In this document: positions 1,812 to 41,579 of the stretch, piece after piece
Layout of the letters: the number at the start of each line of letters is the position of its first letter
How positions within the stretch are numbered: the stretch's first letter is position 1
From: Elusimicrobiota bacterium
GTDB taxonomy: Bacteria; Elusimicrobiota; Elusimicrobia; UBA1565; UBA9628
Direction of reading: 5' to 3'
Assembly: GCA_044450965.1 (NCBI GenBank)
Contig: JBIOJO010000011.1
Coordinates: forward strand, 13,091-77,090
DNA length: 64,000 nt
The notes under the pieces: generated by a model
The model's database searches: none
Told to the model about the DNA's origin: nothing
What the model saw: the letters and a program-made list of their open reading frames with translations, nothing else
Translations under genes and position numbers: made by a program

Positions 1812-1880
1812 GCCCCTATGATAGCCCGGGGGCGAAAACGACGCCTGGGGCGAAAGGTCCTTTCCGACCCGGAATAGGGC

Positions 1881-25819: not shown

Positions 25820-26796
25820 GACGAGGCCTCCTTCATGTCGCGATAGATCTTCTCCAGACGCTCGCCCGACGTGTCGGGGATGTCGATGCGGACGGCGGCG
25901 TGAAGGTCGCCGCGGCCGCCGCCCTCGCGCCCCAGCCCTTTTCCGGCGACGCGCAAGATTTTCCCGGAGTGGGTGCCCGGAGGAACCTTGATCCGGATGG
26001 TTCCTTCCAAGGTGGGCACGGCGGTTTCCCCGCCCAGCGCGGCGACCCAGGGCATGACGGTCACGGTCGTCTCCAGGTCGGCGCCCGAAATTTTGAACGA
26101 CGGATGCGGCTGAAGGCGGATGCGCAGGAAGAGGTCGCCGGGTTCGCCTCCGGGGGCGGGGGAGCCTTGGCCGCGCAGGCGCAGCTTCATCCCGTCGTGA
26201 ACGGCGGCCGGCAGGCGCGCGGTGATGGTCCGGGGCGAGGAGATTTCGCCCACGCCGCCGCAGTTCCGGCAGAAGTTCCGGCCGCTGCGCCCCGTGCCGC
26301 CGCACTCCGGGCACAGCGCGGGGACGTTCAAGGTGATGTTCTTCTCTCCGCCGCGCACCGCGTCCTCCAGCGACAGCGGCATCTCCGCCTCGATGTCCTG
26401 GCCCTTGCGGGGCCCGCGCCGCGCGGAACGCCCGCCGCCCGGGGCCTGTCCGCCGTACAGGTTCTCGAAAAAATCGCTGAATCCGGAGAAGGCTTCGTTC
26501 TCCTCGCCGTTCCCGGCGGGACGGCGCGGGCGTTCCCGCTCGGGGGCGGGCTGAGGCCCGCGCTCCCAGTCGGCCCCGAACTGGTCGTACTTGGCCTTCT
26601 TCTCGGGATTGGAGAGGACCTCATACGCCTCGTTGAGCTCCTTGAACTTCGCGGAGGCTTCGGCTTTTTTGGCCTCGGGATGCAGGTCCGGGTGATGAAG
26701 CTTGGCCAGGCGGCGATAGGCCTGCTTGACTTCCTCGGGGGAGGAGTCTTTCTTGACGCCCAGGATCTCGTAGTAGTCCTTGAAGCCGTCGGCCAT
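25816..26796 (-). CDS. cbpA: Curved-DNA-binding DnaJ-family protein CbpA
   Basis: J-domain with HPD (KDYYEILGV...HPDL). No typical DnaJ zinc-finger; C-terminal DnaJ_C region. Confidence 0.85.
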   Translation of the reverse strand: MADGFKDYYEILGVKKDSSPEEVKQAYRRLAKLHHPDLHPEAKKAEASAKFKELNEAYEVLSNPEKKAKYDQFGADWERGPQPAPERERPRRPAGNGEENEAFSGFSDFFENLYGGQAPGGGRSARRGPRKGQDIEAEMPLSLEDAVRGGEKNITLNVPALCPECGGTGRSGRNFCRNCGGVGEISSPRTITARLPAAVHDGMKLRLRGQGSPAPGGEPGDLFLRIRLQPHPSFKISGADLETTVTVMPWVAALGGETAVPTLEGTIRIKVPPGTHSGKILRVAGKGLGREGGGRGDLHAAVRIDIPDTSGERLEKIYRDMKEASS

Positions 26797-26876
26797 GGCG
26801 ATTCCGGGAGCATAGTAAATCGCTCCGCGCGGCGCCGCGGAGAAAATCGCGCCCAGGGATAATATAAGATCGGATC

Positions 26877-28034
26877 ATGAGGCCGTCCCGAGTTCTCACG
26901 GTCGCCGCCGCGCTCCTCCTGGCTCCGGCCTTCGCGCGCGCCTTCACGCCCGAAGATCAGAAGGTCATCGACCGGGGTCTGGACTCTCTCTACCGCAGCG
27001 ATTACGACGGCGCCGAGAAGGCCTTCTCGGACGCGCTCGCGGCGCGGCCGGGCGATCCGCCGATGTCGCTGGGCTTCGCGGTGGCGGCGTGGTGGCGCAT
27101 GGAGAACGACTTCGCTCCTCCCGGCGGTCCGGAGGAGGCGCGCTTCCTCGCCGCGGTCAAGACCGCAATCGACGACGCCCAGCGCGCGGTGTCCGCGAAG
27201 GGCGACGCCGAGTCCTCGCTGTGCCTCGGCGCGGCCTACGGCCTGCGAGGACGGCTGGAGGCGGCCCGGAAACAATGGTTCAAGGCCTACCGCGACGGCC
27301 GCCGGGCCTATCGCAACGCGCAGCGCGCCGTCCGCCTGGATCCCGGCCTGGACGACGCCTATCTGGGCCTGGGGGCGTTCGACTATTATTCCGCCACGCT
27401 GTCCCGCTTCGTGCGCTTCTTCGTCTTCACCCGGCCGGACAAGGCCAAGGGGCTGGCCGAGCTGGAGAGGGCCAAGCGCGGTCATTTCAGCGGCACGGCC
27501 GCCCAGCTGCTACTGGTGGGCATCGACTGGACCTTCGAGAAGAAGCCGAGCGAGGCCTGGGCCGCCCTCGAGGAACTGCGCGGCCGCTACCCCGACAGTC
27601 CGCTGATCGAATCGATGCGCCTCATCGGATTGTTCCACCTGCGCGACGCCGCGGGGCTGGAGCGCGAGGCGCGGAGCTTCCTGGCGAAAGCGGACGGAGG
27701 CGCGCCCTTCTACCGCCCGCTCGACAAGGCCGCCGGCCATTACTTCCTGGGCCTGGGCGAGCAATTGGCCGGGCGCTGCGAGGAGGCGATCGCGCAGAAC
27801 CGCGCCGCCTTGGAGCTGATTCCGGCGGGTCACCGCACGCGCGGACTGCCGTGGCTGTTCATCGGGGAATGCCAGGACGTCCTGGGGCGGCGGGGCGAGG
27901 CCGTGGACTCCTACCGGCAGGCGCTGGCCAATCCGCCGTTCTGGGGCGTGCCGCGCTACGCGAAGTACCTTCTGAAGCGTCCCTTCCGCGCCGGGGACAA
28001 CCCCCTGCCCGGCCGCAACGACGAATTGGAATAG
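26877..28034 (+). CDS. Secreted TPR-like repeat protein, function unknown
   Basis: Signal peptide MRPSRVLTVAAALLLAPAFARA; helical repeat composition. Confidence 0.6.
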   Translation: MRPSRVLTVAAALLLAPAFARAFTPEDQKVIDRGLDSLYRSDYDGAEKAFSDALAARPGDPPMSLGFAVAAWWRMENDFAPPGGPEEARFLAAVKTAIDDAQRAVSAKGDAESSLCLGAAYGLRGRLEAARKQWFKAYRDGRRAYRNAQRAVRLDPGLDDAYLGLGAFDYYSATLSRFVRFFVFTRPDKAKGLAELERAKRGHFSGTAAQLLLVGIDWTFEKKPSEAWAALEELRGRYPDSPLIESMRLIGLFHLRDAAGLEREARSFLAKADGGAPFYRPLDKAAGHYFLGLGEQLAGRCEEAIAQNRAALELIPAGHRTRGLPWLFIGECQDVLGRRGEAVDSYRQALANPPFWGVPRYAKYLLKRPFRAGDNPLPGRNDELE

Positions 28035-28044
28035 GAGGCTCGTC

Positions 28045-30186
28045 ATGAAGAAATTGATCGCGGTCTTGATGCTGGCGGCCGGCGCGCCGTTCTCCTCCGC
28101 GCGGGCGGCGCTGCCGGCCTCCAATCCTTTCGCGGCGCCCAGCGCGCTTTCCGACCAATTCCCGCCGTTCGACAAGATCAAGGACGCGGACTTCGCGCCC
28201 GCGTTCGAGGCCGGCATGGCCGAGCAGCGCCGCGAGGTGGACGCGATCGCGCGCGACGCGGCGGCGCCGTCGTTCGACAACACGATCGTCGCGCTGGAGC
28301 GCTCCGGGCGCCTGCTGTCGCGGACGTCGAAGACCTTCTTCAACCTCAACGCGTCCAACACCGACGACGCGATGCAGGCCCTCGAGCGCGAGCTGGCGCC
28401 GAAGCTGGCGGCGCATCAGGACGCGATCAGCCTGGACGGCGCGCTGTTCGCGCGGATCTCCGCGCTGCACGACAAGAGGGAGTCCCTGGGTCTGGACGCC
28501 GAATCGGCGCAGCTGCTCGAGCGCTACTACAAGCAGTTCGTGCGCGCGGGCGCGCGCCTGTCCGAGGCCGACAAATCCGCGCTGAAGGCGATCAACCAGG
28601 AACTGTCGTCCCTGACCACGCAATTCGAGCAGAACCTGCTGAAGAACGCGAAGAGCGGCGCCGTGGTGGTGGACGACGCCGCGGCGCTGGACGGCCTGAC
28701 CGAGCAGCAGATCGGCGCGGCCGCCGAGGCGGCGAAGGCGCGCGGGTTGGCGGGCCGGTGGGTCATCGGCCTGCAGAACACGACGATCCAGCCGCCGTTG
28801 GAGCAGATGAAGAACCGCGCCCTGCGCGAGCGGATGTACCGCGCCTCGATCGCGCGCGGAATCGGCGGCGAGGCCGACAACACCGCCCTGGTCTCCAAGA
28901 TCGTCGCCCTGCGCGCGCGGCAGGCGGCCCTGCTCGGCTACTCGAGTTACGCCGCCTATTCGCTGGAGGACGAGTCGGCCGGGACTCCGGACGCGGTCAA
29001 CGAGATGCTCTCCCGTTTGGGCAAAGCCGCCCTGCTCAAGGCCAAGGCCGAGGCCGCCGAAATCCAGACGGTCATCGACTCGGAGGCGAAGGCCCGTCAC
29101 GAGAAGCCCTTCAAGCTTCAGCCGTGGGATTGGGCGTACTACGCCTCGCGCGTTCGCAGGGCGCGCTACGACTTCGACGAGGCGCAGGTGAAGCCTTACT
29201 TCGAGCTGAACCGCGTGCTCAACGACGGCGTCTTCTACGCCGCGCACGAGCTGTACGGCATCACCGTGAAGGAGCGCAAGGACCTGCCGGCGTACCGGCC
29301 CGACGTGCGCGTGTTCGAGGTCTTCGAGGCCGACGGATCGTCCATCGGCCTGTTGATCCGCGACGACTTCAAGCGCGACAACAAGAACGGCGGGGCCTGG
29401 ATGGATTCGTTCGTGGACCAGACCGGACTGTTCGATACCAAGCCTGTGATCATCAACAACCTGAACATCCCGAAGCCGGCCGAGGGCCAACCGGTGCTGC
29501 TGACCTTCGACGAGGTCACCACCATGTTCCACGAGTTCGGCCACGCCCTGCACGGCCTGCTCTCTCATGTGAAGTACCCGCTGCTGGCCGGCACCGCGGT
29601 CCCGCCCGACTTCGTGGAGTACCCGTCCCAGTTCAACGAGATGTGGGCGCGCGAGCCCGAAATCCTGGCGCACTTCGCCAAGGACTACCGCACCGGCGAG
29701 CCGATGCCCAAGGCCCTGCTGGACAAGGTGCTCGTCGCGCAGGACTACGGCGAGGGCTACGCCACCAGCGAGTACCTGGCCGCCGCGATGCTGGACCAGT
29801 CGTGGCATCAGATTTCCGCGTCCGGCGCGCCGGCGCCTTCCGGCGTGATGGCGTTCGAGGAGGCGGCCCTGCGCCGGAACGGCATGACCTACGGGCCGGT
29901 GCCGCCGCGCTACCACACGCCGTACTTCGCGCACTCCTTCAGCGGCGGCTACGCGGCCGCCTACTACGCCTACATCTGGAGCGAGGTTCTGGCGCGCGAC
30001 ACCGGCGCCTGGTTCCACTCGCACGGCGGGATCAGCCGCGCCAACGGGGACTTCTTCCGCGCCAAGATCCTCTCCCGCGGCAGAACCGTGGAGCCGGGCG
30101 TCCTGTTTGAGCGGTTCTACGGCCGCAAGCCCGACGTGGAGCCGCTGCTCGAGTACCGCGGCCTGGCGGCGCCGGCCAAGCGCTGA
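28045..30186 (+). CDS. dcp: Peptidyl-dipeptidase Dcp (M3 family zinc metallopeptidase), secreted
   Basis: HEFGH zinc motif; 713 aa; M3A-family-like sequence; signal peptide. Confidence 0.85.
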   Translation: MKKLIAVLMLAAGAPFSSARAALPASNPFAAPSALSDQFPPFDKIKDADFAPAFEAGMAEQRREVDAIARDAAAPSFDNTIVALERSGRLLSRTSKTFFNLNASNTDDAMQALERELAPKLAAHQDAISLDGALFARISALHDKRESLGLDAESAQLLERYYKQFVRAGARLSEADKSALKAINQELSSLTTQFEQNLLKNAKSGAVVVDDAAALDGLTEQQIGAAAEAAKARGLAGRWVIGLQNTTIQPPLEQMKNRALRERMYRASIARGIGGEADNTALVSKIVALRARQAALLGYSSYAAYSLEDESAGTPDAVNEMLSRLGKAALLKAKAEAAEIQTVIDSEAKARHEKPFKLQPWDWAYYASRVRRARYDFDEAQVKPYFELNRVLNDGVFYAAHELYGITVKERKDLPAYRPDVRVFEVFEADGSSIGLLIRDDFKRDNKNGGAWMDSFVDQTGLFDTKPVIINNLNIPKPAEGQPVLLTFDEVTTMFHEFGHALHGLLSHVKYPLLAGTAVPPDFVEYPSQFNEMWAREPEILAHFAKDYRTGEPMPKALLDKVLVAQDYGEGYATSEYLAAAMLDQSWHQISASGAPAPSGVMAFEEAALRRNGMTYGPVPPRYHTPYFAHSFSGGYAAAYYAYIWSEVLARDTGAWFHSHGGISRANGDFFRAKILSRGRTVEPGVLFERFYGRKPDVEPLLEYRGLAAPAKR

Positions 30187-30187
30187 C

Positions 30188-31585
30188 CTATTTCAGGCGC
30201 AGCGACGCCTTGTCGCCGAGGTTCGCGGGAACGAGCTGGGGAGTCTGGTCTCGGTTCTCCCGCCGGGCCGCGTCCTGCACTTTCGGCCGAAGGTCGGCGT
30301 AGAGCTCCTTGATCGTCGCGTCGCCGCCGCGGGCGTTGAGGGCCTTGAGGAAATTGTAGGTGAAGAGCCCGTGCCCCTGGGCCTCGTCCGCTCCGGTGAT
30401 CTCGTCGGCGGCCGACGCGGTGAGGACCACGAGTTTCCCGGCCGCCTCGGCCGAGGTGTCGACCCTCGTGATCAGCGGGCGGGTGCCCTGGGCTATGACG
30501 GAGCGGCCGCCCGCGCCCGAAAAACAGGAGTCGAGGGCCACGATGACACGCGGGGCCTTCAAGGCGTTGAGCTTCTCGTAGAGACGCTTGATGGGGTACG
30601 CCGTGAATTCCAGGGACGAGGCGTCCGCGTCCCAGGGCAGCAGGTAGGCCTCTCCCGTCTTGACGTCGGGCGCTCCGTGGCCGGAGTAGTAGAAGAAGAC
30701 GGTGGATTTCTCGTTGACGTTGCGCGGCAGCCAGGACTCGAGATTCTTGGCCAAGCCGGCGCGGCTGGCCTGCTGGCCGGTCAGGTAGAGGATGTTCCTT
30801 TCCGGGTAGCCCAGCGCGAGCAGGTGCTTCTTCACGGCGGCCGCGTCGCGCTCGGCGAACTGCGCTTCGGGAAGGCCCGAGTACTTCTCGATTCCGACGA
30901 TCAGGGCGAAATCGTTCGGGCGCTCCTCGCCGCTGTAGTTCGGGTTGTCGACGTCGGAATGGATCGTCTTGGGCGCCGGCGGCGCCGGCGCGGGGACTCG
31001 AGCGGTTTCGGCTGGGCCGGTCTTTGACTTGGCGAACTCGGCGAGCTTCGGCGACGAGAGGATTTCCTTAAATAGCTGCGCGCCGGCCTTCCGGGCGGCG
31101 TCCCGCATGTAAGGTTCGGGAGTGAAGCTGACGTAGGCGAGTTGCGACTGATCTCCGGAGCCGCCGACCTCGTCGATCCGCTCACCCGATGGCGTCAGCA
31201 GGATCGCCCGGGCGTCGACGTGCATCGTCATCCCCTTAGTCGTGTAGACGTCGATCACGGCCACCACGTCGGCGCGGGAGGACGCGGAGTCCTGCAGGCT
31301 GGAGATCTTCACCACCGTGCCGAACGCCTTGGCGAACACGCCGCCGATCTCCTCGAAGATCGGGCCGGCGTCGACCTTCGGCGCCATGAACTGCTTCGTC
31401 TGCAGATAGGCAGCGACGTTCCGGCTGTTCTTGGACGGGAGGAGCGCGACCGTCAGGTTCGGGTAGGACGCGCCGGCGGCTTCGGCGATTCCGGCGAAGG
31501 GGTCCTCGCGTACCGGGGGCGCATTGCAGCCGGTCAAGAGCGAGAGGAGGCCCGCGGACAAGGGCAGGAGGAGAATTTTTGTCAT
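30188..31585 (-). CDS. Lipoprotein with C-terminal caspase-like (peptidase C14) domain, paralog A
   Basis: Lipobox LLTGC; catalytic dyad motifs YYSGHG and DSCFSG in the C-terminal ~230 aa; ~200-aa N-domain of unknown function. Confidence 0.8.
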   Translation of the reverse strand: MTKILLLPLSAGLLSLLTGCNAPPVREDPFAGIAEAAGASYPNLTVALLPSKNSRNVAAYLQTKQFMAPKVDAGPIFEEIGGVFAKAFGTVVKISSLQDSASSRADVVAVIDVYTTKGMTMHVDARAILLTPSGERIDEVGGSGDQSQLAYVSFTPEPYMRDAARKAGAQLFKEILSSPKLAEFAKSKTGPAETARVPAPAPPAPKTIHSDVDNPNYSGEERPNDFALIVGIEKYSGLPEAQFAERDAAAVKKHLLALGYPERNILYLTGQQASRAGLAKNLESWLPRNVNEKSTVFFYYSGHGAPDVKTGEAYLLPWDADASSLEFTAYPIKRLYEKLNALKAPRVIVALDSCFSGAGGRSVIAQGTRPLITRVDTSAEAAGKLVVLTASAADEITGADEAQGHGLFTYNFLKALNARGGDATIKELYADLRPKVQDAARRENRDQTPQLVPANLGDKASLRLK

Positions 31586-31661
31586 CCCGTTATTTTATAA
31601 AAAGAAACGCGCTGCGGAGAGGCTTGAAAACCGGCGGCCGGAACATTGCGTAGGCGATGGC

Positions 31662-32993
31662 GTGGGGCATTCATCGCGGATCGCCTTCTTTTCTCGCGCA
31701 AGCTCGGGGCTGCTCTTGGGACTGGCGCTCCTTCCGGCGTGCTCCTCCATTCCCGTCGCTCCTGCCTTGGAGCCGTTGCCGCCCGCGATGTCGACCGTCC
31801 GGCTGTGGGTGAATTCGGTGGATTCGGAGAACGACGTGCAGAAGGTCACCGAAGGGGGGTCCATCGACGCGGAGCTCCTTCCGGCGGTGGCCTCCGCCCT
31901 GAAATCGGCGGGTTTCCGTCTGGTCTTCGATCCGGCGTCCGCGGACGCGGCCGTCGGTCTCACCGCGACGTCCGGGCCGACGAACAGCTCTCCATATCAT
32001 ACGACCCTGATCTTGACCACGCCGCAAGGAGCGCCGGTCGATCATGTCTTTTATAAAGGAGGCGCCATCGGAGTCCCCTGGAGCGGCGCTCCCGAATACG
32101 TGGCGCGGCTGAACAAGCAGATCGCGAGCGGCATCGCACTCAACCTGGTGGACGAGCTGATGAAGTCGACGACGTTCCAGGCCTTCGCCGAGGAGCGCGG
32201 CCAGGGCCGCCCCGGGAGCGTTTCGTCCGACGCGGACAGGCCTCCGTACCGGCGGAGCGAGGTTCCGGGGGCGTTCGCCGTCGTCGTGGGGGTCGAGAAA
32301 TACTCCCACGATCTGCCCGCGGCGCGCTTCGCCGAGCGCGACGCCCAGGCCGTGAAGAACCACCTGATCGCGCTGGGCTACCCGGAGCGCAACATCAAGC
32401 TGCTGACCGGAAGCCGCGCGGTGCGCTCGGCGCTGGCGGCGTACCTGGAAGACTGGCTTCCGCGGAACGTCAAAGAGGACGGCAAGGTCCTCTTCTATTT
32501 CGCGGGGCACGGCGCGCCGGACCCCGGAACGGGACGGGCTTATCTGATGCCCTGGGACGGAGACCCCAATTATTTGGACAAGACCGCGTATCCTGTCGGG
32601 AAGCTCTACGCGCAGTTGAATGCGTTGAAGGCCGATAAGATTCTCGTCGTGCTGGATTCCGGCTTCTCCGGCGCGGGCGGGCGTTCGGTCCTGGCCAAGG
32701 GCGCCCGCCCCCTGGTGTCCCAAACGGACGGCGCGGCCACCCCCGGCGGAAAGCTGGTCCTGTTGGAGGCGGCTTCGTCGAACGAAGGCGCGAGCGCGCT
32801 GGAAGATCAAGGCCACGGACTATTCACTTATTACTTCCTGAAAGGTCTGGGCGCGGAGGCCAAGGACGGGTCCGGAACGATCACGCCTCGCGGCCTCTAC
32901 GACTTCCTCAAGCCCAAGGTCCAGGACGCCGCCGGGCGCCAGAACCGGGCGCAGACCCCCGTTCTGTCGGGGCCCGCGAACGGAGCGCTATGA
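31662..32993 (+). CDS. Lipoprotein with caspase-like C14 domain carrying a Cys-to-Gly substitution in the catalytic motif (DSGFSG), paralog B, likely pseudo-protease
   Basis: GTG start at 31662 gives the lipoprotein signal ...LLLGLALLPAC; the in-frame ATG at 31524 would overlap paralog A. His motif FAGHG is retained; the Cys motif reads gat tcc ggc ttc tcc ggc. Confidence 0.7.
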   Translation: MGHSSRIAFFSRASSGLLLGLALLPACSSIPVAPALEPLPPAMSTVRLWVNSVDSENDVQKVTEGGSIDAELLPAVASALKSAGFRLVFDPASADAAVGLTATSGPTNSSPYHTTLILTTPQGAPVDHVFYKGGAIGVPWSGAPEYVARLNKQIASGIALNLVDELMKSTTFQAFAEERGQGRPGSVSSDADRPPYRRSEVPGAFAVVVGVEKYSHDLPAARFAERDAQAVKNHLIALGYPERNIKLLTGSRAVRSALAAYLEDWLPRNVKEDGKVLFYFAGHGAPDPGTGRAYLMPWDGDPNYLDKTAYPVGKLYAQLNALKADKILVVLDSGFSGAGGRSVLAKGARPLVSQTDGAATPGGKLVLLEAASSNEGASALEDQGHGLFTYYFLKGLGAEAKDGSGTITPRGLYDFLKPKVQDAAGRQNRAQTPVLSGPANGAL

Positions 32994-34315
32994 AACATCT
33001 CGCCGCGGCGTGTTTGGGCATGGCGTTGATTCTGGCCGGCTGCGCCTCCATCCCGGAAGCGCCGACGTTCGATCCGCTGCCGCCGGGCGCGGCGAACCTG
33101 CGGCTGCGCGTCGGCGCGGCCGAGGGCGGGAACAACGCCGGAAAGGCCGGCGGCGGCGGGACGACGATCGAGCAGGAGCTTCTGGCGGCTCTGGGTTCCG
33201 CGTTGAAGGAGGCGGGATTCCAGCTGGTGTACGACGCCCGGACGGCCGACGCCAGCGTGAACGTCGCCGTCGGGTTCCACGGGACTTCGTTCGCCCCGTA
33301 CCGCACGACGTTGATCCTGCGCGGGCCGCGAGGCACGCAGATCGATCAGGTCCAATTCGTGGGCGGGCAGGGGAGCGACTACTCGGCGCTCGCGCGCGGC
33401 ATCGCGTCCAACCTGGTGGACAAGCTTCTGAAGTCTCCCATCTTCATCGCCTACGCGCAGGAGCCCCGTTCCGCCGCGGCCGCGGGAGAGACGGCCGGAG
33501 CGTCGCCCGTTCCGGAGCCCATCAAAAACTTCAGCTCCGACGTGGACGAGCCGCGCTACCGGCTCGCCGAGGACGCGGGGGCCTTCGCCGTCGTCGTCGG
33601 GGTCGAAAAATATTCCAACGACCTTCCGGCGGCGTCGTTCGCGGAGCGCGACGCGCAGGCCGTGAAGAACCATCTGGTCGCGCTGGGCTACCCGGAGCGC
33701 AACATCAAGTTCCTGACCGGAAGCCGGGCGGTCCGTTCGGCGCTGGCGGCGTACCTGGAAGACTGGCTCCCGCGCAACGTCAAAGAGGACGGTAAGGTCT
33801 TTTTTTATTTTTCCGGACATGGCGCGCCGGATCCCGGATCGGGGCAGGCGTATCTGGTGCCTTGGGACGGAGACCCGAATTTCCTGGACAAGACCGCGTA
33901 TCCGTTGAAGAAGCTCTACGCCGATCTGAACGCCTTGAAAGCCAAAAAAATTCTCGTCGCGCTCGATTCCTGCTTCTCCGGCTCGGGCGGCCGCTCGGTC
34001 CTGGCCAAGGGAGCGCGCCCGCTGGTGAGCCGGGTGGATACTTCTGTCGCGCCCGGCGGCAATATGGTCCTCTTCGCGGCCGCGTCGTCGCGGGAAATCA
34101 CGAGCGCCCTGGAAGAACAGGGCCACGGGATCTTCACCTACTACTTCCTAAAAGGCCTGGGCGGGGACGCGAAGGATCGATCCGGCGCGATCACCGCTCA
34201 GGGGCTTTTCGACTATCTCAAGCCCAAGGTCCAGGACGCCGCCAGCCGGCAGAACCGTGACCAGACGCCCGTCCTTGAGGGCGCCGCGGAAAGAGAGATC
34301 ATCCGCCTTAGGTGA
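32990..34315 (+). CDS. Lipoprotein with caspase-like C14 domain, paralog C
   Basis: Lipobox LILAGC; FSGHG and DSCFSG intact; ATGA overlap with paralog B. Confidence 0.8.
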   Translation: MKHLAAACLGMALILAGCASIPEAPTFDPLPPGAANLRLRVGAAEGGNNAGKAGGGGTTIEQELLAALGSALKEAGFQLVYDARTADASVNVAVGFHGTSFAPYRTTLILRGPRGTQIDQVQFVGGQGSDYSALARGIASNLVDKLLKSPIFIAYAQEPRSAAAAGETAGASPVPEPIKNFSSDVDEPRYRLAEDAGAFAVVVGVEKYSNDLPAASFAERDAQAVKNHLVALGYPERNIKFLTGSRAVRSALAAYLEDWLPRNVKEDGKVFFYFSGHGAPDPGSGQAYLVPWDGDPNFLDKTAYPLKKLYADLNALKAKKILVALDSCFSGSGGRSVLAKGARPLVSRVDTSVAPGGNMVLFAAASSREITSALEEQGHGIFTYYFLKGLGGDAKDRSGAITAQGLFDYLKPKVQDAASRQNRDQTPVLEGAAEREIIRLR

Positions 34316-34325
34316 TCATCCTCCT

Positions 34326-35786
34326 ATGAAGATTATCATGATCGTCGTGATTCTGACGGCCGGCTGCGCGACGGGCTCCCGTCCCCCGGCGCCCCAATCG
34401 TTTCCCGCCGCCGCCGGCGCGCCTCTGCCGCTGAGGGTCGGCGTATCGGGCGAGGAGCAGGAACTTCCCATTCTGGACGAGGGTTTCGTCAAAAGCGAAC
34501 CCGGCGAACTCGACCGCTTTTCCCAGATTCTACGCGAGGCGAAAATATTCAAGGAGGTGCGGTATCCGCTGAGCCAGGCCAATCGGTCGGGCGTCGACCT
34601 AGTCCTCTATCCGCGCCTGTCCGCACGCTACGTCGATGACGCCCTCTATATTCCGAAGGCGGCGGTGGTCGCTTTCACTCTGACTCTGACGGCGCCGTTG
34701 TTCCCGGCGCGCGAGGAATTTTCGGCGAAGGCCCGGCTGACCGTCAAGGACGGAGCCGGCGAGGAGCTGAGACAATACAGCGAGTCGCAGGAGGTTCTGA
34801 CCGCTTGGAACTTGGTCTGGGACAGCTGGAATCCGGGGGCGCGTTCCGCCTACGACAACGTCACCTCGCGACTGCTCCAGGACCTGATCAACGACAGGCC
34901 CCTGTTCGAAAGAACGGCGGACCGACTGCTCGCCGCGGAAAGGACCGAGGACGCGAAGAACGGGGGGCAGGCGCGGACGAGCCCGCCGCGTTCGGCCGCG
35001 TCGTATTCCTCCGATGTGGACGTTCCGACCCTGCGCTCGCCCGAGCGTCCGGACGACTTCGCGCTGGTCGTCGGCATCGAGAAGTATTCCAACGACCTTC
35101 CGGACGCCCAATTCGCCGAACGCGACGCCGAGGCGGTGCGAAGCCACCTTCTCGCTCTTGGAGTTCCCGAGCGGAACATGAAGTTCCTGACCGGAGCACG
35201 GGCCACCAAGGGAAACCTGGAGGCGTATCTCGAGGATTGGCTTCCCCGCAACGCGAAGGAAGACGGACGCGTGTTCTTCTATTTCTCGGGTCACGGAGCG
35301 CCCGAGGCGGATTCGGGGCGGGCCTATCTGGTTCCCTCGGACGGCGACCCGAAGTTCCTCGATAAGACCTCTTTCCCGCTCAAGAAGCTTTACGCCGATC
35401 TCAACGCGCTGAAATCAAAACGGGTCATCGTCGCCTTGGACTCCTGCTTTTCGGGCTCGGGCGGCCGCTCGGTCCTGGCCAAGGGCGCGCGTCCGCTGGT
35501 GAACCGGGTGGATACTTCGGTCGCGTCCGGCGGCAAGCTGATCCTCTTCAGCGCGGCCTCGGCCGACGAGACGAGCGGCACGCTGGAGGAGCAGGGCCAC
35601 GGCGCGTTCACTTACTACTTCCTAAAAGGGATCGACGGCGGAGCGAAGGACCAATCAGGAAGTATCACTCTGCGCGGGATTTTCGACTATCTCAAGCCCA
35701 AGGTCCAGGACGCCGCCAGCCGGCAGAACCGCGACCAGACGCCCGTCCTTGAGGGCGCCTCCGCGGGCGAGGTCCTCCGGCGTTAG
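34326..35786 (+). CDS. Lipoprotein with caspase-like C14 domain, paralog D
   Basis: Start trimmed to MKIIMIVVILTAGC (lipobox); FSGHG and DSCFSG intact. The 3' 100 nt are ~95% identical to paralog C. Confidence 0.8.
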   Translation: MKIIMIVVILTAGCATGSRPPAPQSFPAAAGAPLPLRVGVSGEEQELPILDEGFVKSEPGELDRFSQILREAKIFKEVRYPLSQANRSGVDLVLYPRLSARYVDDALYIPKAAVVAFTLTLTAPLFPAREEFSAKARLTVKDGAGEELRQYSESQEVLTAWNLVWDSWNPGARSAYDNVTSRLLQDLINDRPLFERTADRLLAAERTEDAKNGGQARTSPPRSAASYSSDVDVPTLRSPERPDDFALVVGIEKYSNDLPDAQFAERDAEAVRSHLLALGVPERNMKFLTGARATKGNLEAYLEDWLPRNAKEDGRVFFYFSGHGAPEADSGRAYLVPSDGDPKFLDKTSFPLKKLYADLNALKSKRVIVALDSCFSGSGGRSVLAKGARPLVNRVDTSVASGGKLILFSAASADETSGTLEEQGHGAFTYYFLKGIDGGAKDQSGSITLRGIFDYLKPKVQDAASRQNRDQTPVLEGASAGEVLRR

Positions 35787-38239
35787 CGGCGCTGGGCCGC
35801 CGCGGCGGGGACGCGCCAGCGGATCAGCGCGACCTTGAGCGCGTCGTTGACGATCAGGCAGGCGGCCGCCGAATACGCGAAGATCATGAGCGTCAGCGGC
35901 CAAGGCAGCGGCAGGAGCCCCGGCAGCCCCACCCGGGTCAGAACGGTGCCGGTGAGCGCGTCCGCCGCGAGCGCCGCCAGAAGAGTCTTGCTCGGCATCG
36001 TCGACCAGAACCAGCGCCGCTCCCGGGCGGACACGATGGAAAAGGCCGCGAAGTAGAGCAACGTCAGGAAGCTGAAGGTGTGGAGGGCGTGCTCGTTGGA
36101 CGCCAGGCCGAAGCGCGTCCAGGCGAACCAGAGGAAGAAAAGCGACTCGGCGACCATGGCCGCGCCCAGCGCGGCCGACACCGCGATGAAGCCGCCGATA
36201 TTCCAGGTCTCCGGATTTTGGGACGGACGCACGCGGTCGGTGGCTAGCGCGATCTTGGCGAAGTCCGTCATGAAGGTCAGCAGCAGCATCGCGAAAGCGG
36301 AGACGACGAATTTCCCGGTCGCCGCGAAGGCTATGGCCACGAAGGCCGCCTTCAGGATCGTGCGGCTGATCTTGTTGATGATCCAGGTCAGGATGCGCTG
36401 GTAGATGGTGCGTCCCTGCTCGACCAAGGTCACGATGTTCGTCAGCCCCGGCTCCGTCAGAACCACGCTGGCGGCGCCTTTGGCGACGTCGGTCGCGGAA
36501 CTGACGGCGATGCCCACCTCGGCCTGGCGCAGAGCGGGGGCGTCGTTGACGCCGTCGCCCGTCATGCCGGTCACGTGCCCGGCGGCCTGAAGGCGCTGCA
36601 CGACCGTGTACTTGTCCTCGGGGTACACTTCCGCGAGGCCGTCGGTTCCCGCCAACAGGTCGAAGGCTTCGCCGCCGGCTTGAGAGCCGGCGGCCTTGAG
36701 GTCCGCGACGCGCCGGATTTTCGTCAGGCCGACCCCGCGCCCTATTTCGCCGGCCACCGCCAGCGCGTCGCCGGTGAGCATCTTGACGGAAACGCCCAGC
36801 CCGCGCAGTTCGGCGATGAGTTGCTTGGCGTCCGGCCGCGGCGGATCATACAGGGTCACTAGGCCGAGAATCGCGGGCGCGCCCGTCTCGGGGCCTTGCG
36901 CCACCGCTAAAGTTCGATAGCCCTTCAGGGCCGATTCTCTCACGCGCGCTTCCAGGGCTTCGATCGCCGCAGGTTGAAGCCCGCAGGCTTGCGCGATGGC
37001 GCTCACGGCGCCCTTCATCACGCGCAACCGCCGCCCGTTCTGCTCGATGACGGCTTCCGTTCTCCGGTTCGTCGCGTCGAACGGCGCGAAGGAGACGGGC
37101 GTGGAGGCGGGCGCGCCGTTGAAGACATTCCGTTCTTTCGCGGCGGCGAGAAACGCCAGATCGATGGGGTCCTGATTGGATTCTTGGGAGGCGAGCGCCC
37201 CGGCGGCCAAGACGTCGGCCTCCGTCGCCTTCTCCAGTGGGATGACGCCGGTCACGGCCAGCCGGTTCATGGTGATGGTGCCGGTCTTGTCCACGCACAG
37301 CACGTCCATGGTCGCGGCGTCCTCGGCGGCGCTCAGGCGCGTGACCAGCACGCCCCGCTTGGCCAGCTCCTTGGAGCCGAGGGCCATGCTGACGGTGAAC
37401 ATGACGGGAAGGGCGACGGGCACGGCGCTCATCAGGAGGACGAGCATGAGCGAGACCATCTCCAGCATCGGAACCCCGCGCAGCAGGGACAGGACGACCA
37501 CCACGCTGAGAAGCGCGCCGACGATGACGAAAAGCCAGCGGACCACCTTGGCGACCACAGCCTCGATGTGCAGCTTCGGGCGCGCCTGCTGCACCAGCTC
37601 CGTGGTGCGGCCGAAGTAGGTTTTCGCGCCCGTAAGCAGGACCACGGCGTTGCCCTCGCCGCGGCGAACGATGGAGCCCGAGGAGAGCACTCCCCCGGCG
37701 ATCTTGTCGGCTTCCTTGGACTCGCCGGTGAGGGCCGACTGGTCGAGGCTCAGCTCTCCCGCCAGGAGCTTCAGGTCCGCCGGGACGATGTCTCCGGGCC
37801 GGACGCGGACGATGTCGCCGGGAACCAGCTCCCGGGCGGGAAGGACCCGCCAAGCCGAGTCGCGCAGGACGCGCGCGCTGACCTGCAGGCGCCGCCGCAG
37901 CGCCTCGACCACGCCCGCGGCCCGCCTTTCCTGCATGAAGCTCAGCACGGCGTTGACCACCAACAGGGCGCTGACCACCGCCAGGTCGGAGTATTTCCGG
38001 AGGACGGCGGACAGGATCATGATGAGCTCGAGCATCCACGCCGAGACGCCCCAGAATTTCGCGAGGAATCGAAGCAGAGGGTGCTCCTTCTCCTCCGCCA
38101 CCTCGTTGTAGCCGTGCGCCTTCCGCCGGAAGTCCGCTTCGGCGCTCGTGAGGCCGACCTGGGGGTTTACCTTGAGAGCGGCGAGGGTTTCGGGAACCGA
38201 GGCGGTCGCGACGTCGGGGGGCGCGGTGTTTTTAGACAC
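35783..38239 (-). CDS. P-type ATPase, type IIIA-like (plasma-membrane H+ or Mg2+-transporting family)
   Basis: DKTGTIT phosphorylation motif and TGDGVNDAPAL hinge; 818 aa; 10 TM-like segments. Confidence 0.9.
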   Translation of the reverse strand: MSKNTAPPDVATASVPETLAALKVNPQVGLTSAEADFRRKAHGYNEVAEEKEHPLLRFLAKFWGVSAWMLELIMILSAVLRKYSDLAVVSALLVVNAVLSFMQERRAAGVVEALRRRLQVSARVLRDSAWRVLPARELVPGDIVRVRPGDIVPADLKLLAGELSLDQSALTGESKEADKIAGGVLSSGSIVRRGEGNAVVLLTGAKTYFGRTTELVQQARPKLHIEAVVAKVVRWLFVIVGALLSVVVVLSLLRGVPMLEMVSLMLVLLMSAVPVALPVMFTVSMALGSKELAKRGVLVTRLSAAEDAATMDVLCVDKTGTITMNRLAVTGVIPLEKATEADVLAAGALASQESNQDPIDLAFLAAAKERNVFNGAPASTPVSFAPFDATNRRTEAVIEQNGRRLRVMKGAVSAIAQACGLQPAAIEALEARVRESALKGYRTLAVAQGPETGAPAILGLVTLYDPPRPDAKQLIAELRGLGVSVKMLTGDALAVAGEIGRGVGLTKIRRVADLKAAGSQAGGEAFDLLAGTDGLAEVYPEDKYTVVQRLQAAGHVTGMTGDGVNDAPALRQAEVGIAVSSATDVAKGAASVVLTEPGLTNIVTLVEQGRTIYQRILTWIINKISRTILKAAFVAIAFAATGKFVVSAFAMLLLTFMTDFAKIALATDRVRPSQNPETWNIGGFIAVSAALGAAMVAESLFFLWFAWTRFGLASNEHALHTFSFLTLLYFAAFSIVSARERRWFWSTMPSKTLLAALAADALTGTVLTRVGLPGLLPLPWPLTLMIFAYSAAACLIVNDALKVALIRWRVPAAAAQRR

Positions 38240-38325
38240 GAGACATCGTAGGACATTCGGGAGCCGCGGCGCGGAATAGGGGCGGCGGCATTGACGCGAG
38301 GCGGTTGTCCGGCTAGACTCATCTC

Positions 38326-39699
38326 GTGATATCGGTTCTGGTCATCGTGTTGCTGCGTCTGGGTTCTCCCGCGGTTCGCGCCGAAGACGGCCATCCGCCG
38401 GCCGGCTCCGTCTACGCCGAAGCCGCGGAGGATTACAAGGCCGGCGTCGCCCTGGCCGCGCGGAAGAGCTATCCCGAAGCCGTCGCGAAACTCTCGGAAG
38501 CCGTTCGACTGAATCCGAAGTTCGGCAACGCCTATTTTTGGATCGGCGCTTGCGAGTTCGCTCAGGGCCACGACGCCTCGGCCGGCTCCAATTGGAAGCT
38601 GGCGCTGGCCAATACGCGGGACACAAGCCAATTGGCGCTGATCCACTACAATCTGGGCGTCCTGTATTTGAAGAGCGGGGATAAGCCGCTGTCGGACGCG
38701 GAGTACGGCGCCGCGGTGTCGTTGAATCCGCTTCTGGCGAACCGGCCCATCGTGGCGCGTCCGAATCCCGCGCCCGCGCCCGCACCCGCGCCTCTTCCCG
38801 TCGTCCCCGCGCTCCTGATCGGAGCGGTATTCCTCGCGGGTCTCCTCGCGCTGGTCATCGCGTTGAGCCGTCGGCGTCGCGACGCGGCGCCCGCGGCCGT
38901 GGAATCCGCCGCGGCGCCCGGAATAGACGAACTGCGCCGCGCCGTCGCCTCCTGGAGCCCGGAAGAGGAGCTGCGGTCGGCCCCGTCGCCCCGTCCGGTG
39001 AAGCTGCGGTCGCCGGTCGCGTATTGGGGGTTGTTTGCGATCCCCCTGGTCTATGTCCTGGTCGTGACTTTGATCGCCGCGCCGTCGACCGTCAAGCGCG
39101 GGCTCATCTCGTGGCGGGGCGTGGCCGGGACAGGCACGGTCCTGCGGAAATTCCAGGTCCGGCGCGCCGCCAAGCACGGCAGCTACCTGGAGAATCGTCT
39201 CGAGTTCTCTTATGCGCCGGCGGGAGGCGGGCCCCAGACCGCGGAAGCGCCGACGGGGGACGATTCGTCCGTCGCCGTCGGCCAGACGGTCCCGATACGC
39301 TTCCTCCCGGATTATCCGGGCTGGGCGGCCCTGGACGACGATTTCGGATTCAGCGCGCAGAAAATGAAAATATTTTGGGTCCTCGCGGCGACGGGGGTGG
39401 GGACTTCCGTCCTCATTCTCCTCGTCGCCTGGCCCAGGATCCGGCGGGAACGGCGCCTGATTCAGTCGGGACGGATTTGCGCGGCCAGGATCGCGGCGGT
39501 GCAGATCGGCGCGAAGGGGATGGCCGCCGTTTCGTTCCACTACGAGGTCGACGGGCAGGTCCGGCCGGGCACCTTCCTCTCGACGCGCTCTCAAAACCTC
39601 CAGCCCGGCGAAGTTCTCACCGCGATGATCGATCCCGCCGATCCCCTTTCCGCGACGATCTACAAGGCTTCCGCCTGGCGCGTCGCGGCGCCGTACTGA
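38326..39699 (+). CDS. Membrane protein with N-terminal periplasmic TPR-like domain, function unknown
   Basis: Signal-like N-terminus; TPR-like region; Pro/Ala linker; two TM helices. 457 aa. Confidence 0.55.
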   Translation: MISVLVIVLLRLGSPAVRAEDGHPPAGSVYAEAAEDYKAGVALAARKSYPEAVAKLSEAVRLNPKFGNAYFWIGACEFAQGHDASAGSNWKLALANTRDTSQLALIHYNLGVLYLKSGDKPLSDAEYGAAVSLNPLLANRPIVARPNPAPAPAPAPLPVVPALLIGAVFLAGLLALVIALSRRRRDAAPAAVESAAAPGIDELRRAVASWSPEEELRSAPSPRPVKLRSPVAYWGLFAIPLVYVLVVTLIAAPSTVKRGLISWRGVAGTGTVLRKFQVRRAAKHGSYLENRLEFSYAPAGGGPQTAEAPTGDDSSVAVGQTVPIRFLPDYPGWAALDDDFGFSAQKMKIFWVLAATGVGTSVLILLVAWPRIRRERRLIQSGRICAARIAAVQIGAKGMAAVSFHYEVDGQVRPGTFLSTRSQNLQPGEVLTAMIDPADPLSATIYKASAWRVAAPY

Positions 39700-39770
39700 C
39701 CGCGCCGAACCCCGGCACCGGAGCGCCCGGTGCTCTTGCGCCCGGGAAGGACCGGGGCTACACTCCACGA

Positions 39771-41579
39771 ATGGCAGGTTCTTGGGCGCTCTGGAGCGCT
39801 TTAGACCGCGACGAGCGCGCGCAAACGCACGCCGCCGCCGCGTTCGCGCTGGCCTGCGCGTGCCTGTGGTTCCTTCAGCCGATCACCGGCGCGCTCGTGC
39901 CGGCCGACCTGGGTCCCCGGGCGCTCGGCGGCCGCGCGGGCGGCGAGTTGGCGGCCTGGGCCTTCCTGATCCTCGCGGGGCCGGTCCTTCTGCACGAGGC
40001 CTTCCTGCGGCTGGGAAGCCGCGCGCGGCGGGCGGCTTCCTTCACCGCTCTTTACGGGACGTACGTCGCGTTCTGCGCGGCGGACGCCCTGGCGCGGTCG
40101 GCGGCGCCCGGGCGCGCGGGGGCGTGGGCCTTCGTCCTCACGGCGGCGGGCGCCTGGCTGCTTTACGGCCAGCTGCTCGGCCTTCACGGCCTGGCGCCGA
40201 AGCGCGCCGTCGCGGGCCTGGCGGCGGCGCTGGCTTTATGGGTCCTTGCGCCGGCCGGGCTGGCGCGCGCGTTCCCCCGCGCGGTCGTCTCGGGGCTCTT
40301 CGACGACGTGAGCCGCGGCATCCAGGCGGTGTCCTGGCCGGCGGAGCTGCAGCCCGGGGGCGAAGGCCAAACGGACGCGGCCCCGGAGTACATGAAGGCC
40401 GACGGCCTCCTCGCCGGCATGGATCCCGGCTCCCCGGCCATCATTAAAATATCCCAGCAGCTCCGGAAGCCGGCTTTCGACGCGGACGCGGCAAGGGAGT
40501 TCGACGAGCTCCTCAAGAAGAACGCGGCCGCCTTGGCCGCTTTCCGCCGCGCGGCGCGCCTGCCGTTCTGCGATTTCAACGGCGGCGCGAAGACGATCGG
40601 CTTCAACAACGCGTTCCCGAACCGCTTCAAGCCGTTCCGCTTGAGCACCCTCGCCCTTTTGGACGCGCGGCGCGAGCAGGCGCGCGGCCGCCCGGGCTCC
40701 GCCGTGGACGATTACGTCGCCGCGCTCTCGATGGCCCGGCATTTCGCCCGGCAGACGAACGCCCGCTGGATGCACGCGTTCTGCTACCGCACGATCGTCC
40801 AGAACGCCTGGCCCGGGCTCTCCCTCCTGCTCGCCGAGGGAAAGCCGGCGCGCGCGGAGCGCGAGCGCCTGCTCGCCGCGCTGCGCGCCCTGGAGGACTC
40901 CAAGCCCAGCCTGGCGGCCGCCGTCGCGGACGAGGAGCGGCGCCTCGAGCTCCAGGCCGAGACCGTGGGCCCGATCGAGGCGAGCGTCTTCAGCGCGCCG
41001 TTTCGCCGGTCGTTCCAGGACGCCCGCCTGGTGGTTTTCGCGCGCGAGCGCGAGGCGGTCGTCGAGGCGGCCGAACGGAACCGGCCCGAGCTGGCCTCGC
41101 GCGAGCGCGACGTCGCCGCGCGCGATTACGGCGGAACCGTCTCCGGGGGCTCGCTGTTCGAATCCTACGCCGTCTGCCTGGCCGATCCGAAGGTCGCCGG
41201 GCGGTGCTGGGGCGAGGTCAACCTGCTCTACTCCACGGACTACGGCGGCCCCATCGTCTACCAATTCATCGCCGACGCCGCGGTGGGCGTGCTGGCGGCC
41301 GCGGCCGCCGCGCGCGTCTACGAGAGCCGTCACGGCACCGCGCCCCGGACTCTCGCCGATCTGGTGCCCGGCGAGCTGTCCGCCGTGCCCGCCGACCCGT
41401 TCGACGGTTTCCGGCCCCTGCGCTACGCGGTTCGGCGCGGAGAATGGACGGCGTACAGCGTGGGCCCGGACCGCGTCGACGACGGCGGCCGGACGGCGTT
41501 CGACATGAGCGAGGAGTTCGGAGGCCGTTCCCGGAAGCAGCCGCCGAAGGGCGATCTGGTCGTGCGCGTGCGATTCTGA
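39771..41579 (+). CDS. Polytopic membrane protein with large C-terminal soluble domain, function unknown
   Basis: Start trimmed to the ATG at 39771, removing the 249-aa N-extension that overlaps the upstream gene. Several N-terminal TM helices. Confidence 0.55.
   Translation: MAGSWALWSALDRDERAQTHAAAAFALACACLWFLQPITGALVPADLGPRALGGRAGGELAAWAFLILAGPVLLHEAFLRLGSRARRAASFTALYGTYVAFCAADALARSAAPGRAGAWAFVLTAAGAWLLYGQLLGLHGLAPKRAVAGLAAALALWVLAPAGLARAFPRAVVSGLFDDVSRGIQAVSWPAELQPGGEGQTDAAPEYMKADGLLAGMDPGSPAIIKISQQLRKPAFDADAAREFDELLKKNAAALAAFRRAARLPFCDFNGGAKTIGFNNAFPNRFKPFRLSTLALLDARREQARGRPGSAVDDYVAALSMARHFARQTNARWMHAFCYRTIVQNAWPGLSLLLAEGKPARAERERLLAALRALEDSKPSLAAAVADEERRLELQAETVGPIEASVFSAPFRRSFQDARLVVFAREREAVVEAAERNRPELASRERDVAARDYGGTVSGGSLFESYAVCLADPKVAGRCWGEVNLLYSTDYGGPIVYQFIADAAVGVLAAAAAARVYESRHGTAPRTLADLVPGELSAVPADPFDGFRPLRYAVRRGEWTAYSVGPDRVDDGGRTAFDMSEEFGGRSRKQPPKGDLVVRVRF

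Follow-up and report, generated by a model that had tools for sequence, protein, structure and literature searches.

A probable pseudo-caspase lipoprotein coupled to an intact paralog in an Elusimicrobiota gene array

Why should a bacterium carry a gene for a caspase-fold protein without its catalytic cysteine directly beside genes for paralogs that have one? This question is raised by a stretch of 64,000 nucleotides from an Elusimicrobiota bacterium (assembly GCA_044450965.1, contig JBIOJO010000011.1, positions 13,091 to 77,090 of the forward strand), which is called the window in this paper. Its source is a metagenome-assembled genome, represented by a single consensus sequence. Four open reading frames (ORFs) of the window, named here paralogs A, B, C and D, encode a Peptidase_C14 caspase domain above the Pfam gathering score, and in B the Cys of the catalytic motif is replaced by Gly. 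We analyzed the codons, the predicted structure, the protein family and the gene order of this array. Our reading, of moderate confidence, is that B has been kept as a non-catalytic partner of the live paralog or paralogs beside it.

All four proteins are built in the same way, with a predicted lipoprotein signal, a variable N-terminal domain of ~160-210 residues that matches no Pfam family and a caspase domain of ~255 residues. The Pfam family PF00656 matches B with 35.3 bits and A with 65.6 bits (range for A, C and D 51-66; cutoff 21.4), and the match of B spans profile positions 3-223 of 233. Among the NCBI proteins B is identical to P0001, and C and D, on the same contig of 81,374 bp, are P0004 and P0041. 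A first-pass annotation of the window had proposed that B changed DSCFSG to DSGFSG by one nucleotide, within 32641-32700, and this was borne out. The motif of B is encoded by GAT TCC GGC TTC TCC GGC; the aligned Cys codon is TGT in A, TGC in C and D and GGC in B, and the difference between B and C or D at the catalytic codon is a single T-to-G change. The same annotation gave the codons of both C and D as gat tcc tgc, which is right for the TGC of both, whereas the Asp codon of D is GAC. The His motif was said to be kept, as it is: GHG is present in all four paralogs, and in the four-way alignment the version of B is YFAGHG. The sole Cys of B is Cys27 of the lipobox, and the mature protein has no other thiol.

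The AlphaFold2 (AF2) model of B is confident (predicted local distance difference test score, pLDDT, 87.6). In this model Gly334 closes strand 326-334 at its C-terminal end, and the long strand before that one leads into His283. The second half of the caspase fold is present in a compact form, and the Pfam match spans nearly the whole model. In a Foldseek search of the PDB the best match to the model was GSU0716 of Geobacter sulfurreducens (3bij); the top matches also included the MALT1 paracaspase and metacaspases (E ~1e-10 to 1e-9), and with caspases added the range was E ~1e-10 to 1e-7 (probability 1.00). phmmer found no match between the B caspase domain and the PDB. The family profile aligns FFYFSGHGA with FLHYSGHGG of the yeast metacaspase Yca1, in an alignment that covers the N-terminal half only, up to the His. 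Around their catalytic residues, metacaspases and GSU0716 have the published motifs YSGHG and SDSCHSG in common (PMC3881575). Since the motifs and the fold match those of metacaspases and GSU0716, Gly334 is predicted to replace the catalytic nucleophile, an assignment based on motif identity, the literature and the fold match and not on a residue-level superposition. The best structural matches (GSU0716, Yca1, AtMC9 and TbMCA2) share the YSGHG and DSCxSG motifs; they differ from B in that they are only 13-16% identical to it, have the Cys, and are without a lipoprotein signal or an LptE-like N-terminal domain. With regard to peptidase family C14, B has the Pfam match, the caspase-haemoglobinase fold and the His, and is without the catalytic Cys of D-x-C-x-S-G. 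It may be classified as a structural member of the family and, judging from the missing nucleophile, probably not as an active one. The titles of PDB entries indicate that a Cys-to-Gly mutation serves to inactivate metacaspase 9 for crystallography.

In order to place this substitution in its family, the two catalytic columns were read from an alignment of 310 family proteins from three database searches; the family as a whole has 29,241 cluster representatives at E <= 1e-3 and 1,540 at 1e-30. The His/Cys pair is intact in 305 of the 310 proteins, and five (1.6%) deviate: B and P0222 (His/Gly), P0007 and P0095 (Asn/Gly), and P0214 (Tyr/Cys). The Cys column holds Cys in 306 proteins, and all four exceptions are Gly. 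A second residue varies together with the loss of catalysis. Two positions before the His, all five dead variants have Ala, while the intact proteins mostly have Ser (296/305) and rarely Ala (8/305, 2.6%); the association is strong by Fisher's test (p = 6e-8, or 1e-6 without B). This suggests, from the alignment, that the Ser two before the His contributes to catalysis. The intact partner of the dead P0214 (L018:4664-6004) likewise has Ala at this position. A further scan of metagenome contigs with a degenerate DNA pattern for L-D-[SA]-G-F-S-G gave three more Gly variants, namely L011a (His/Gly, with the Ser kept), L012 (Asn/Gly, with Ala) and the fragment L013. A short-motif profile search aimed at Gly variants gave no candidates, and with a profile made from the three Asn/Gly variants no additional protein of this kind turned up.

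These data bear on two doubts about the Gly of B. One of them is that it is an artefact, either a sequencing or consensus error or a minority allele in the metagenome assembly, with TGC as the true codon. The difference is one nucleotide, the sequence comes from a metagenome assembly, and the database holds one copy. No strain-level relative of B was found in the databases searched, where the cluster of P0001 has one member and the next match is 63% identical; a scan of GTDB species representatives gave no close relative, and an exact look-up of P0001 gave no other contig. On the other hand, a His/Gly or Asn/Gly state was found in six other unrelated assemblies, and B carries Ala281 as do 4/4 of the other dead variants of the census, a coincidence that a random error would rarely produce. 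Because B also has this rare Ser-to-Ala change, common to all dead variants of the census, we judge an error to be improbable, and nothing else in the data speaks as strongly for a real Gly as the joint presence of Ala281 and Gly334. It also suggests that the Gly is not brand new and that B followed the same trajectory as the other dead copies. The second doubt is that B is still a hydrolase, with another nucleophile such as Ser333 or Ser336 acting with His283. In its favor, B has His283 and the motifs around it, and there are serines on both sides of the Gly. Yet position 333 is not conserved, being Ala in 27/120 of the closest homologues and in the dead P0007, P0095 and P0222; three dead variants are also without the His; and Cys-to-Gly and Cys-to-Ala mutants of metacaspases are the standard inactive forms for crystallography. 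We give this option very little credence.

The next question is when and how often the Cys was lost. By similarity of its N-terminal domain B groups with P0002 (63-66%), the gene at 255-1718 of L015, P0003 and P0007, and the order of a B-type gene followed by a C-type gene is kept in L002, L014 and L015 and apparently in L001. A check of such orthologous arrays for the same substitution, as had been advised in the first-pass annotation, gave a divided answer: of the four counterparts, P0007 in L001 has Gly (Asn/Gly) and the other three are His/Cys. Because the nearest counterpart, P0002 (63% identical), has Cys, the Gly is, on this comparison, a derived state in the lineage of the window. That is all that P0002 shows, as there is no strain-level relative in which the codon could be compared with TGC. 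From these sequences, the gene at the B position appears to have become inactive on at least two independent occasions, once in the window and once in L001. A neighbour-joining tree of the caspase domain (257 columns) scatters the dead variants, with B beside C, L011a beside L011b, and P0095 near the intact P0063 and P0067. A single ancient Gly clade that includes B was rejected on this scatter, for which a 257-column neighbour-joining tree is weak evidence; with the same weak tree, the three Asn/Gly variants may have a single origin.

Within a genome, the caspase domains of neighboring paralogs resemble each other more than those of orthologues do. The caspase domain of B is 78% identical to that of C and 71% to that of P0002, whereas the respective values for the N-terminal domains are 46% and 63%. 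In L002 the caspase domains of P0002 and P0006 (2803-4275 and 4447-4848) are 96% identical, and in L015 the caspase pair (255-1718 and 1786-3123) is identical at the DNA level while the N-terminal domains are 62% identical. These patterns point to gene conversion, confined to the caspase domain, that homogenises tandem paralogs in some genomes. In the window (32226-32990 of B against 33536-34312 of C) it would have largely stopped, apart from tracts of 89-96% nucleotide identity. Such a halt would allow B to keep an active site different from that of C. A small lipoprotein gene of ~150 amino acids overlaps the start of the B-type caspase gene by 4 nt in L001 (4140-4589) and in L014 (812-1294), the two being 56% identical; no counterpart was found in the window by tblastn.

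If the Cys is lost, is the rest of B decaying? The ORF is intact, and B agrees with the family at all 52 columns for which conservation is at least 98%. At the 95 columns conserved in at least 90% it deviates at 6, compared with a family median of 2, and with 9 in the intact A, 9 in P0007 and 8 in P0095. Because none of the 52 most conserved columns is altered, the loss in B appears to be specific to one otherwise constrained site and not a sign of general decay. Pairwise ratios of non-synonymous to synonymous rates (dN/dS, or omega) for the caspase domain are 0.22 for B and C, 0.21 for C and D, and 0.19 for B and P0002. Polarised with D, the B branch carries 44 synonymous and 45 non-synonymous changes, where ~1:2.9 is expected under neutrality (p = 2e-6). 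The branch omega of B (~0.35) exceeds that of C (~0.17) without reaching significance (Fisher p = 0.08), and the difference between B and D is also not significant. In relative-rate comparisons B has 31 unique changes against 6 for C with D as outgroup, and 36 against 9 relative to the family consensus. We rejected the possibility that B evolves unusually fast and is decaying: C is unusually conservative, the identity of the B caspase domain to the family consensus (73.7%) is at the family median (74.0%), and the intact D and A show similar or larger excesses. These counts indicate that purifying selection has acted on B for most of its time as a separate gene. The label of probable pseudo-caspase given in the first-pass annotation thus fits what was found here, namely a lost catalytic-motif Cys, no other thiol, an intact gene and a branch under purifying selection.

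Another explanation for such a gene is that it is a recent loss-of-function allele, in which a paralog made redundant by C and D has taken the first step of decay and has no new role. B is adjoined by three intact paralogs, its nearest counterpart still has Cys, its omega is about twice that of C, with three to four times as many unique amino-acid changes, and its GTG start is weak and its lipobox odd (see below). All dead variants found are also isolated tips. Against this stand the intact ORF and the unaltered 52 columns, a branch omega that is far from 1, and the Ser-to-Ala change, which is convergent and which B has in common with the dead variants it typifies. Dead copies can persist as well: the doubly substituted Asn/Gly variants (P0007, P0095 and L012) are full-length and match 86-87 of the 95 columns conserved at >=90%. 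Finally, only Gly is found at the lost Cys site, where random decay predicts otherwise. We consider a recent loss without a new role to be unlikely.

The reading of B as a retained partner comes mainly from the gene arrangement. The stop codon of B (TGA, 32991-32993) overlaps the start codon of C (ATG, 32990-32992), in agreement with the first-pass annotation, which described a dead paralog coupled to an active one. The implied co-orientation of B with A did not hold, as A lies on the minus strand and is divergent from B. Other dead variants likewise adjoin intact paralogs. In L017, P0222 (His/Gly) is joined by an ATGA overlap to an intact paralog (YFSGHG / DSCFSG). In L011 a His/Gly ankyrin-caspase gene is followed 48 nt on by an intact paralog, with a caspase-domain dN/dS of 0.10. 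The order is reversed in L018 and L019, where an intact gene overlaps the Tyr/Cys gene P0214 by 4 nt and the dead copy is downstream. In L001 there is a 4-nt overlap between P0007 (Asn/Gly) and a gene that resembles a C-type lipoprotein over its first 34 residues, at which point the contig ends; P0095 overlaps its downstream gene by 4 nt, and in L012 a TPR-kinase gene is next downstream. All dead copies with readable neighbors (the window, L017, L011 and L018, and probably L001) adjoin an intact paralog on the same strand, usually with a 4-nt overlap. Intact genes of the family in L003-L007, L020 and L022 are solitary within 5-8 kb, and in L008 a second family copy lies 2.6 kb away on the other strand. 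Pairing with a paralog was seen in 4/4 readable dead copies and in 3/11 intact ones, with three intact B-type pairs as the background (hypergeometric p ~0.03, for a small sample that is not phylogenetically corrected). In L019 the gene listed upstream of P0214 has only 98 amino acids (1261-1557), while tblastn finds a full caspase domain there (772-1554), as in L018; the short gene is probably a frameshift or a miscall in that contig.

Based on this arrangement, the mechanism that we propose is as follows. B would be an envelope lipoprotein and a genuine, retained pseudo-protease, with an intact caspase fold, the His and the pocket-lining motifs, and without a nucleophile (Cys334 to Gly). It would share one transcript with the intact C and D, the co-transcription being suggested by the gene order, and would most likely be a non-catalytic partner of C, whether as a protomer with an allosteric or scaffolding function or as a decoy that binds substrates. 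The regulatory or decoy role that had been suggested for B in the first-pass annotation may thus be correct; a physical interaction between B and C, and any regulatory effect, are suggested by the gene arrangement and by analogy.

Several points weigh against such a retained partner. To our knowledge, no member of this caspase family has been characterised biochemically. The omega value averages the whole B branch, and the Cys-to-Gly change may fall anywhere on it. B is no more divergent than the family median and its omega is not significantly different from those of C and D, which is no demonstration of long-term selection on B after the loss. Every dead variant found is a lone tip without dead close relatives, a pattern that also fits short-lived losses. 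The sequence is a single metagenome consensus without a close relative, and the next match has Cys. The GTG start, the weak ribosome-binding site and the Pro in the lipobox could mean that B is poorly expressed or processed. Lastly, the assumption that B and C dimerise is borrowed from caspases and MALT1, while metacaspases are described as monomers (PMC12914765). The features of the array are collected in Table 1.

Table 1. Position of the four caspase paralogs and of the elements of paralog B in the window.
Feature	Position	Strand	Basis
Paralog A: caspase-domain lipoprotein, His/Cys intact (YYSGHG / DSCFSG, Cys codon TGT)	30188-31585	-	ORF, PF00656, codons
A/B intergenic spacer, 76 nt, A+T-rich, between divergent starts; presumed promoter region	31586-31661		
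Paralog B: 443-aa predicted lipoprotein, caspase domain without catalytic Cys (probable pseudo-caspase)	31662-32993	+	
B signal peptide and lipobox (MGHSSRIAFFSRASSGLLLGLALLPAC); non-canonical, Pro at -2	31662-31742	+	translation
B N-terminal alpha/beta domain, weakly LptE/PelC/TolB-N-like	31743-32225	+	AF2 pLDDT 83 (modelled alone), Foldseek
B caspase-fold domain, 78% identical to that of C	32226-32990	+	
B Ala281 codon GCG, where the family mostly has Ser	32502-32504	+	
B His283 codon CAC, catalytic His kept; aligns with the His of Yca1 YSGHG	32508-32510	+	
B DSGFSG motif; Gly334 codon GGC (32661-32663) in place of the catalytic Cys	32655-32672	+	
B/C junction: GGAG Shine-Dalgarno (32982-32985) 4 nt upstream of ATG; ATGA start/stop overlap (32990-32993)	32982-32993	+	
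Paralog C: intact caspase lipoprotein (YFSGHG / DSCFSG), closest relative of the B caspase domain, proposed partner	32990-34315	+	
Paralog D: intact caspase lipoprotein, starts 10 nt past the C stop	34326-35786	+	

The start of B needs some explanation. Its frame offers three possible starts, namely TTG 31524 (overlapping A, which is on the opposite strand), GTG 31662 and TTG 31716, the last being the NCBI call. The first-pass annotation had offered either a weak GTG or an ATG overlapping A; the GTG is the one that we prefer and its ribosome-binding site is indeed weak, while no in-frame ATG lies upstream in the frame of B and the ATG at 31657 is out of frame. Starting at GTG 31662 is better than the NCBI start in that it yields a normal lipoprotein signal peptide (MGHSSRIAFFSRASSGLLLGLALLPAC), where TTG 31716 leaves only the 9-residue MGLALLPAC. 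The lipobox that follows from the GTG start, ...GLALLPAC|SS, has Pro at -2, which departs from the pattern L-[ASTVI]-[GAS]-C. Canonical lipoboxes are found in A (LTGC), C (LAGC) and D (TAGC) and in B orthologues (IAGC and VAGC). A promoter scan found no consensus promoter in the A/B spacer.

The N-terminal domain of B has no match in Pfam. Its model weakly resembles the LptE, PelC, TolB-N, PqiC, DUF330 and TraT lipoprotein folds (Foldseek E 3e-4 to 1e-2, template modelling (TM) score 0.4-0.54). This likeness agrees with a location in the envelope and is not strong evidence for it. The corresponding domain of C spans 33044-33535, and several of the outer-membrane lipoprotein folds that the model resembles form rings or plug barrels. 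A motif, S-D-[VAI]-D-x-P, is nearly invariant exactly at the junction between the N-terminal and caspase domains (each of S, D and P is present in 90% or more of 82 sequences). It reads SDADRP in B (32226-32243) and SDVDxP in A, C and D; as it resembles a DxxD-type cleavage site, it could be a site of self-processing.

Of the genes around the array (26877-30186 and 35783-39699), the one at 28045-30186 encodes an M3-family oligopeptidase (391 bits) and the one at 35783-38239, on the minus strand, a P-type cation ATPase; a TPR protein and a TPR/DUF3592 protein are encoded there as well. Next to the array we saw no genes for defence, toxins or mobile elements. Long antisense or out-of-frame ORFs overlie the caspase genes within 26328-41579 of the window (for example 31671-32816, minus strand, 381 amino acids, and 32897-34126, minus strand, 409 amino acids), and their Arg/Gly/Pro-rich translations are typical of spurious ORFs in DNA of 67% G+C. 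An anti-phage defence caspase module was also considered and is not supported: the NCBIfam model of EACC1-associated caspases, NF047832, reaches 79-87 bits where its cutoff is 140, the match in PADLOC is no more than a generic 'caspase', and the neighbors of the array (M3 peptidase, TPR proteins and P-type ATPase) include no defence partner genes.

How does B compare with inactive caspase homologues that are already known? It was reported that ~16% of bacterial caspase homologues are without an intact His/Cys pair (PMC3501461), and 858 of 9,994 bacterial orthocaspases were counted as pseudo-variants, most of them Tyr/Ser (PMC6426788, Klemencic et al. 2019). The variant of Synechocystis is Tyr/Gly, and single substitutions such as His/Ala are reported too (PMC6426788). 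A pseudo-orthocaspase is defined as a prokaryotic caspase homologue with a p20 domain in which one or both catalytic residues are substituted (PMC6426788). By its sequence, with the His kept and the Cys changed to Gly, B falls under this definition. As in B, the His or Cys of the pseudo-orthocaspases is substituted while the fold and the pocket residues are kept (PMC6426788; for SyOC of Synechocystis, PMC7889975). Those described are mainly cyanobacterial and alphaproteobacterial, and in Synechocystis and Synechococcus the dead copy is the sole caspase homologue (PMC6426788). B differs from them in being a predicted Elusimicrobiota lipoprotein with an N-terminal envelope-type domain, and in its family the states are His/Gly, Asn/Gly and Tyr/Cys, the residues Gly, Ala and Asn recur, and the dead copies (1.6%) adjoin a live paralog.

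A closer analogy for the pairing of a dead and a live copy may be found in eukaryotes. cFLIP (CFLAR) is a vertebrate caspase-fold paralog without the catalytic Cys, whose gene lies in the CFLAR-CASP10-CASP8 cluster and which heterodimerises with caspase-8 and modulates it. There too the dead gene adjoins an active paralog, and cFLIP may serve as a model for the relationship that we propose between B and C. B shares with it only the caspase fold, without death-effector domains or orthology to CFLAR; cFLIP is cytosolic and eukaryotic, and the heterodimer of B and C is only proposed. The metacaspase homologue MCA4 of T. brucei is anchored to the membrane by a lipid. It is a pseudopeptidase that interacts with an active paralogous metacaspase (PMC3220528). 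Its likeness to B, by analogy, is that of an inactive metacaspase homologue tied to an active paralog; unlike B, MCA4 is eukaryotic, has Cys changed to Ser and belongs to no operon. MCA4 is also a substrate of the live metacaspase, which for B would be one option among several.

Inactive bacterial caspase homologues are already known to be common, and the Cys substitution alone is not surprising. What this array adds is its context: the dead copies of this family are rare, have several origins with the same residues, and stand beside a live paralog, usually with an overlap of stop and start codons. The pair of B and C is a concrete and testable bacterial pseudo-protease and enzyme pair, in a simple two-gene system. 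A broader hypothesis, which we offer tentatively and consider doubtful as yet, is that among the envelope caspase lipoproteins of Elusimicrobiota a translationally coupled module of a dead and a live gene arose repeatedly and convergently (Cys to Gly, Ser to Ala, often then His to Asn), and that the live protease is controlled by the dead protomer within an obligate heterodimer, in a bacterial equivalent of the cFLIP and caspase-8 pair. The close link of Ser-to-Ala with the loss of catalysis would, on this reading, also point to the Ser two before the His as a previously unrecognised catalytic-site residue of this caspase clade. The array opens the question of whether dead paralogs regulate caspase-fold proteases outside animals, and with it the question of what role the abundant envelope caspases of these bacteria may play.

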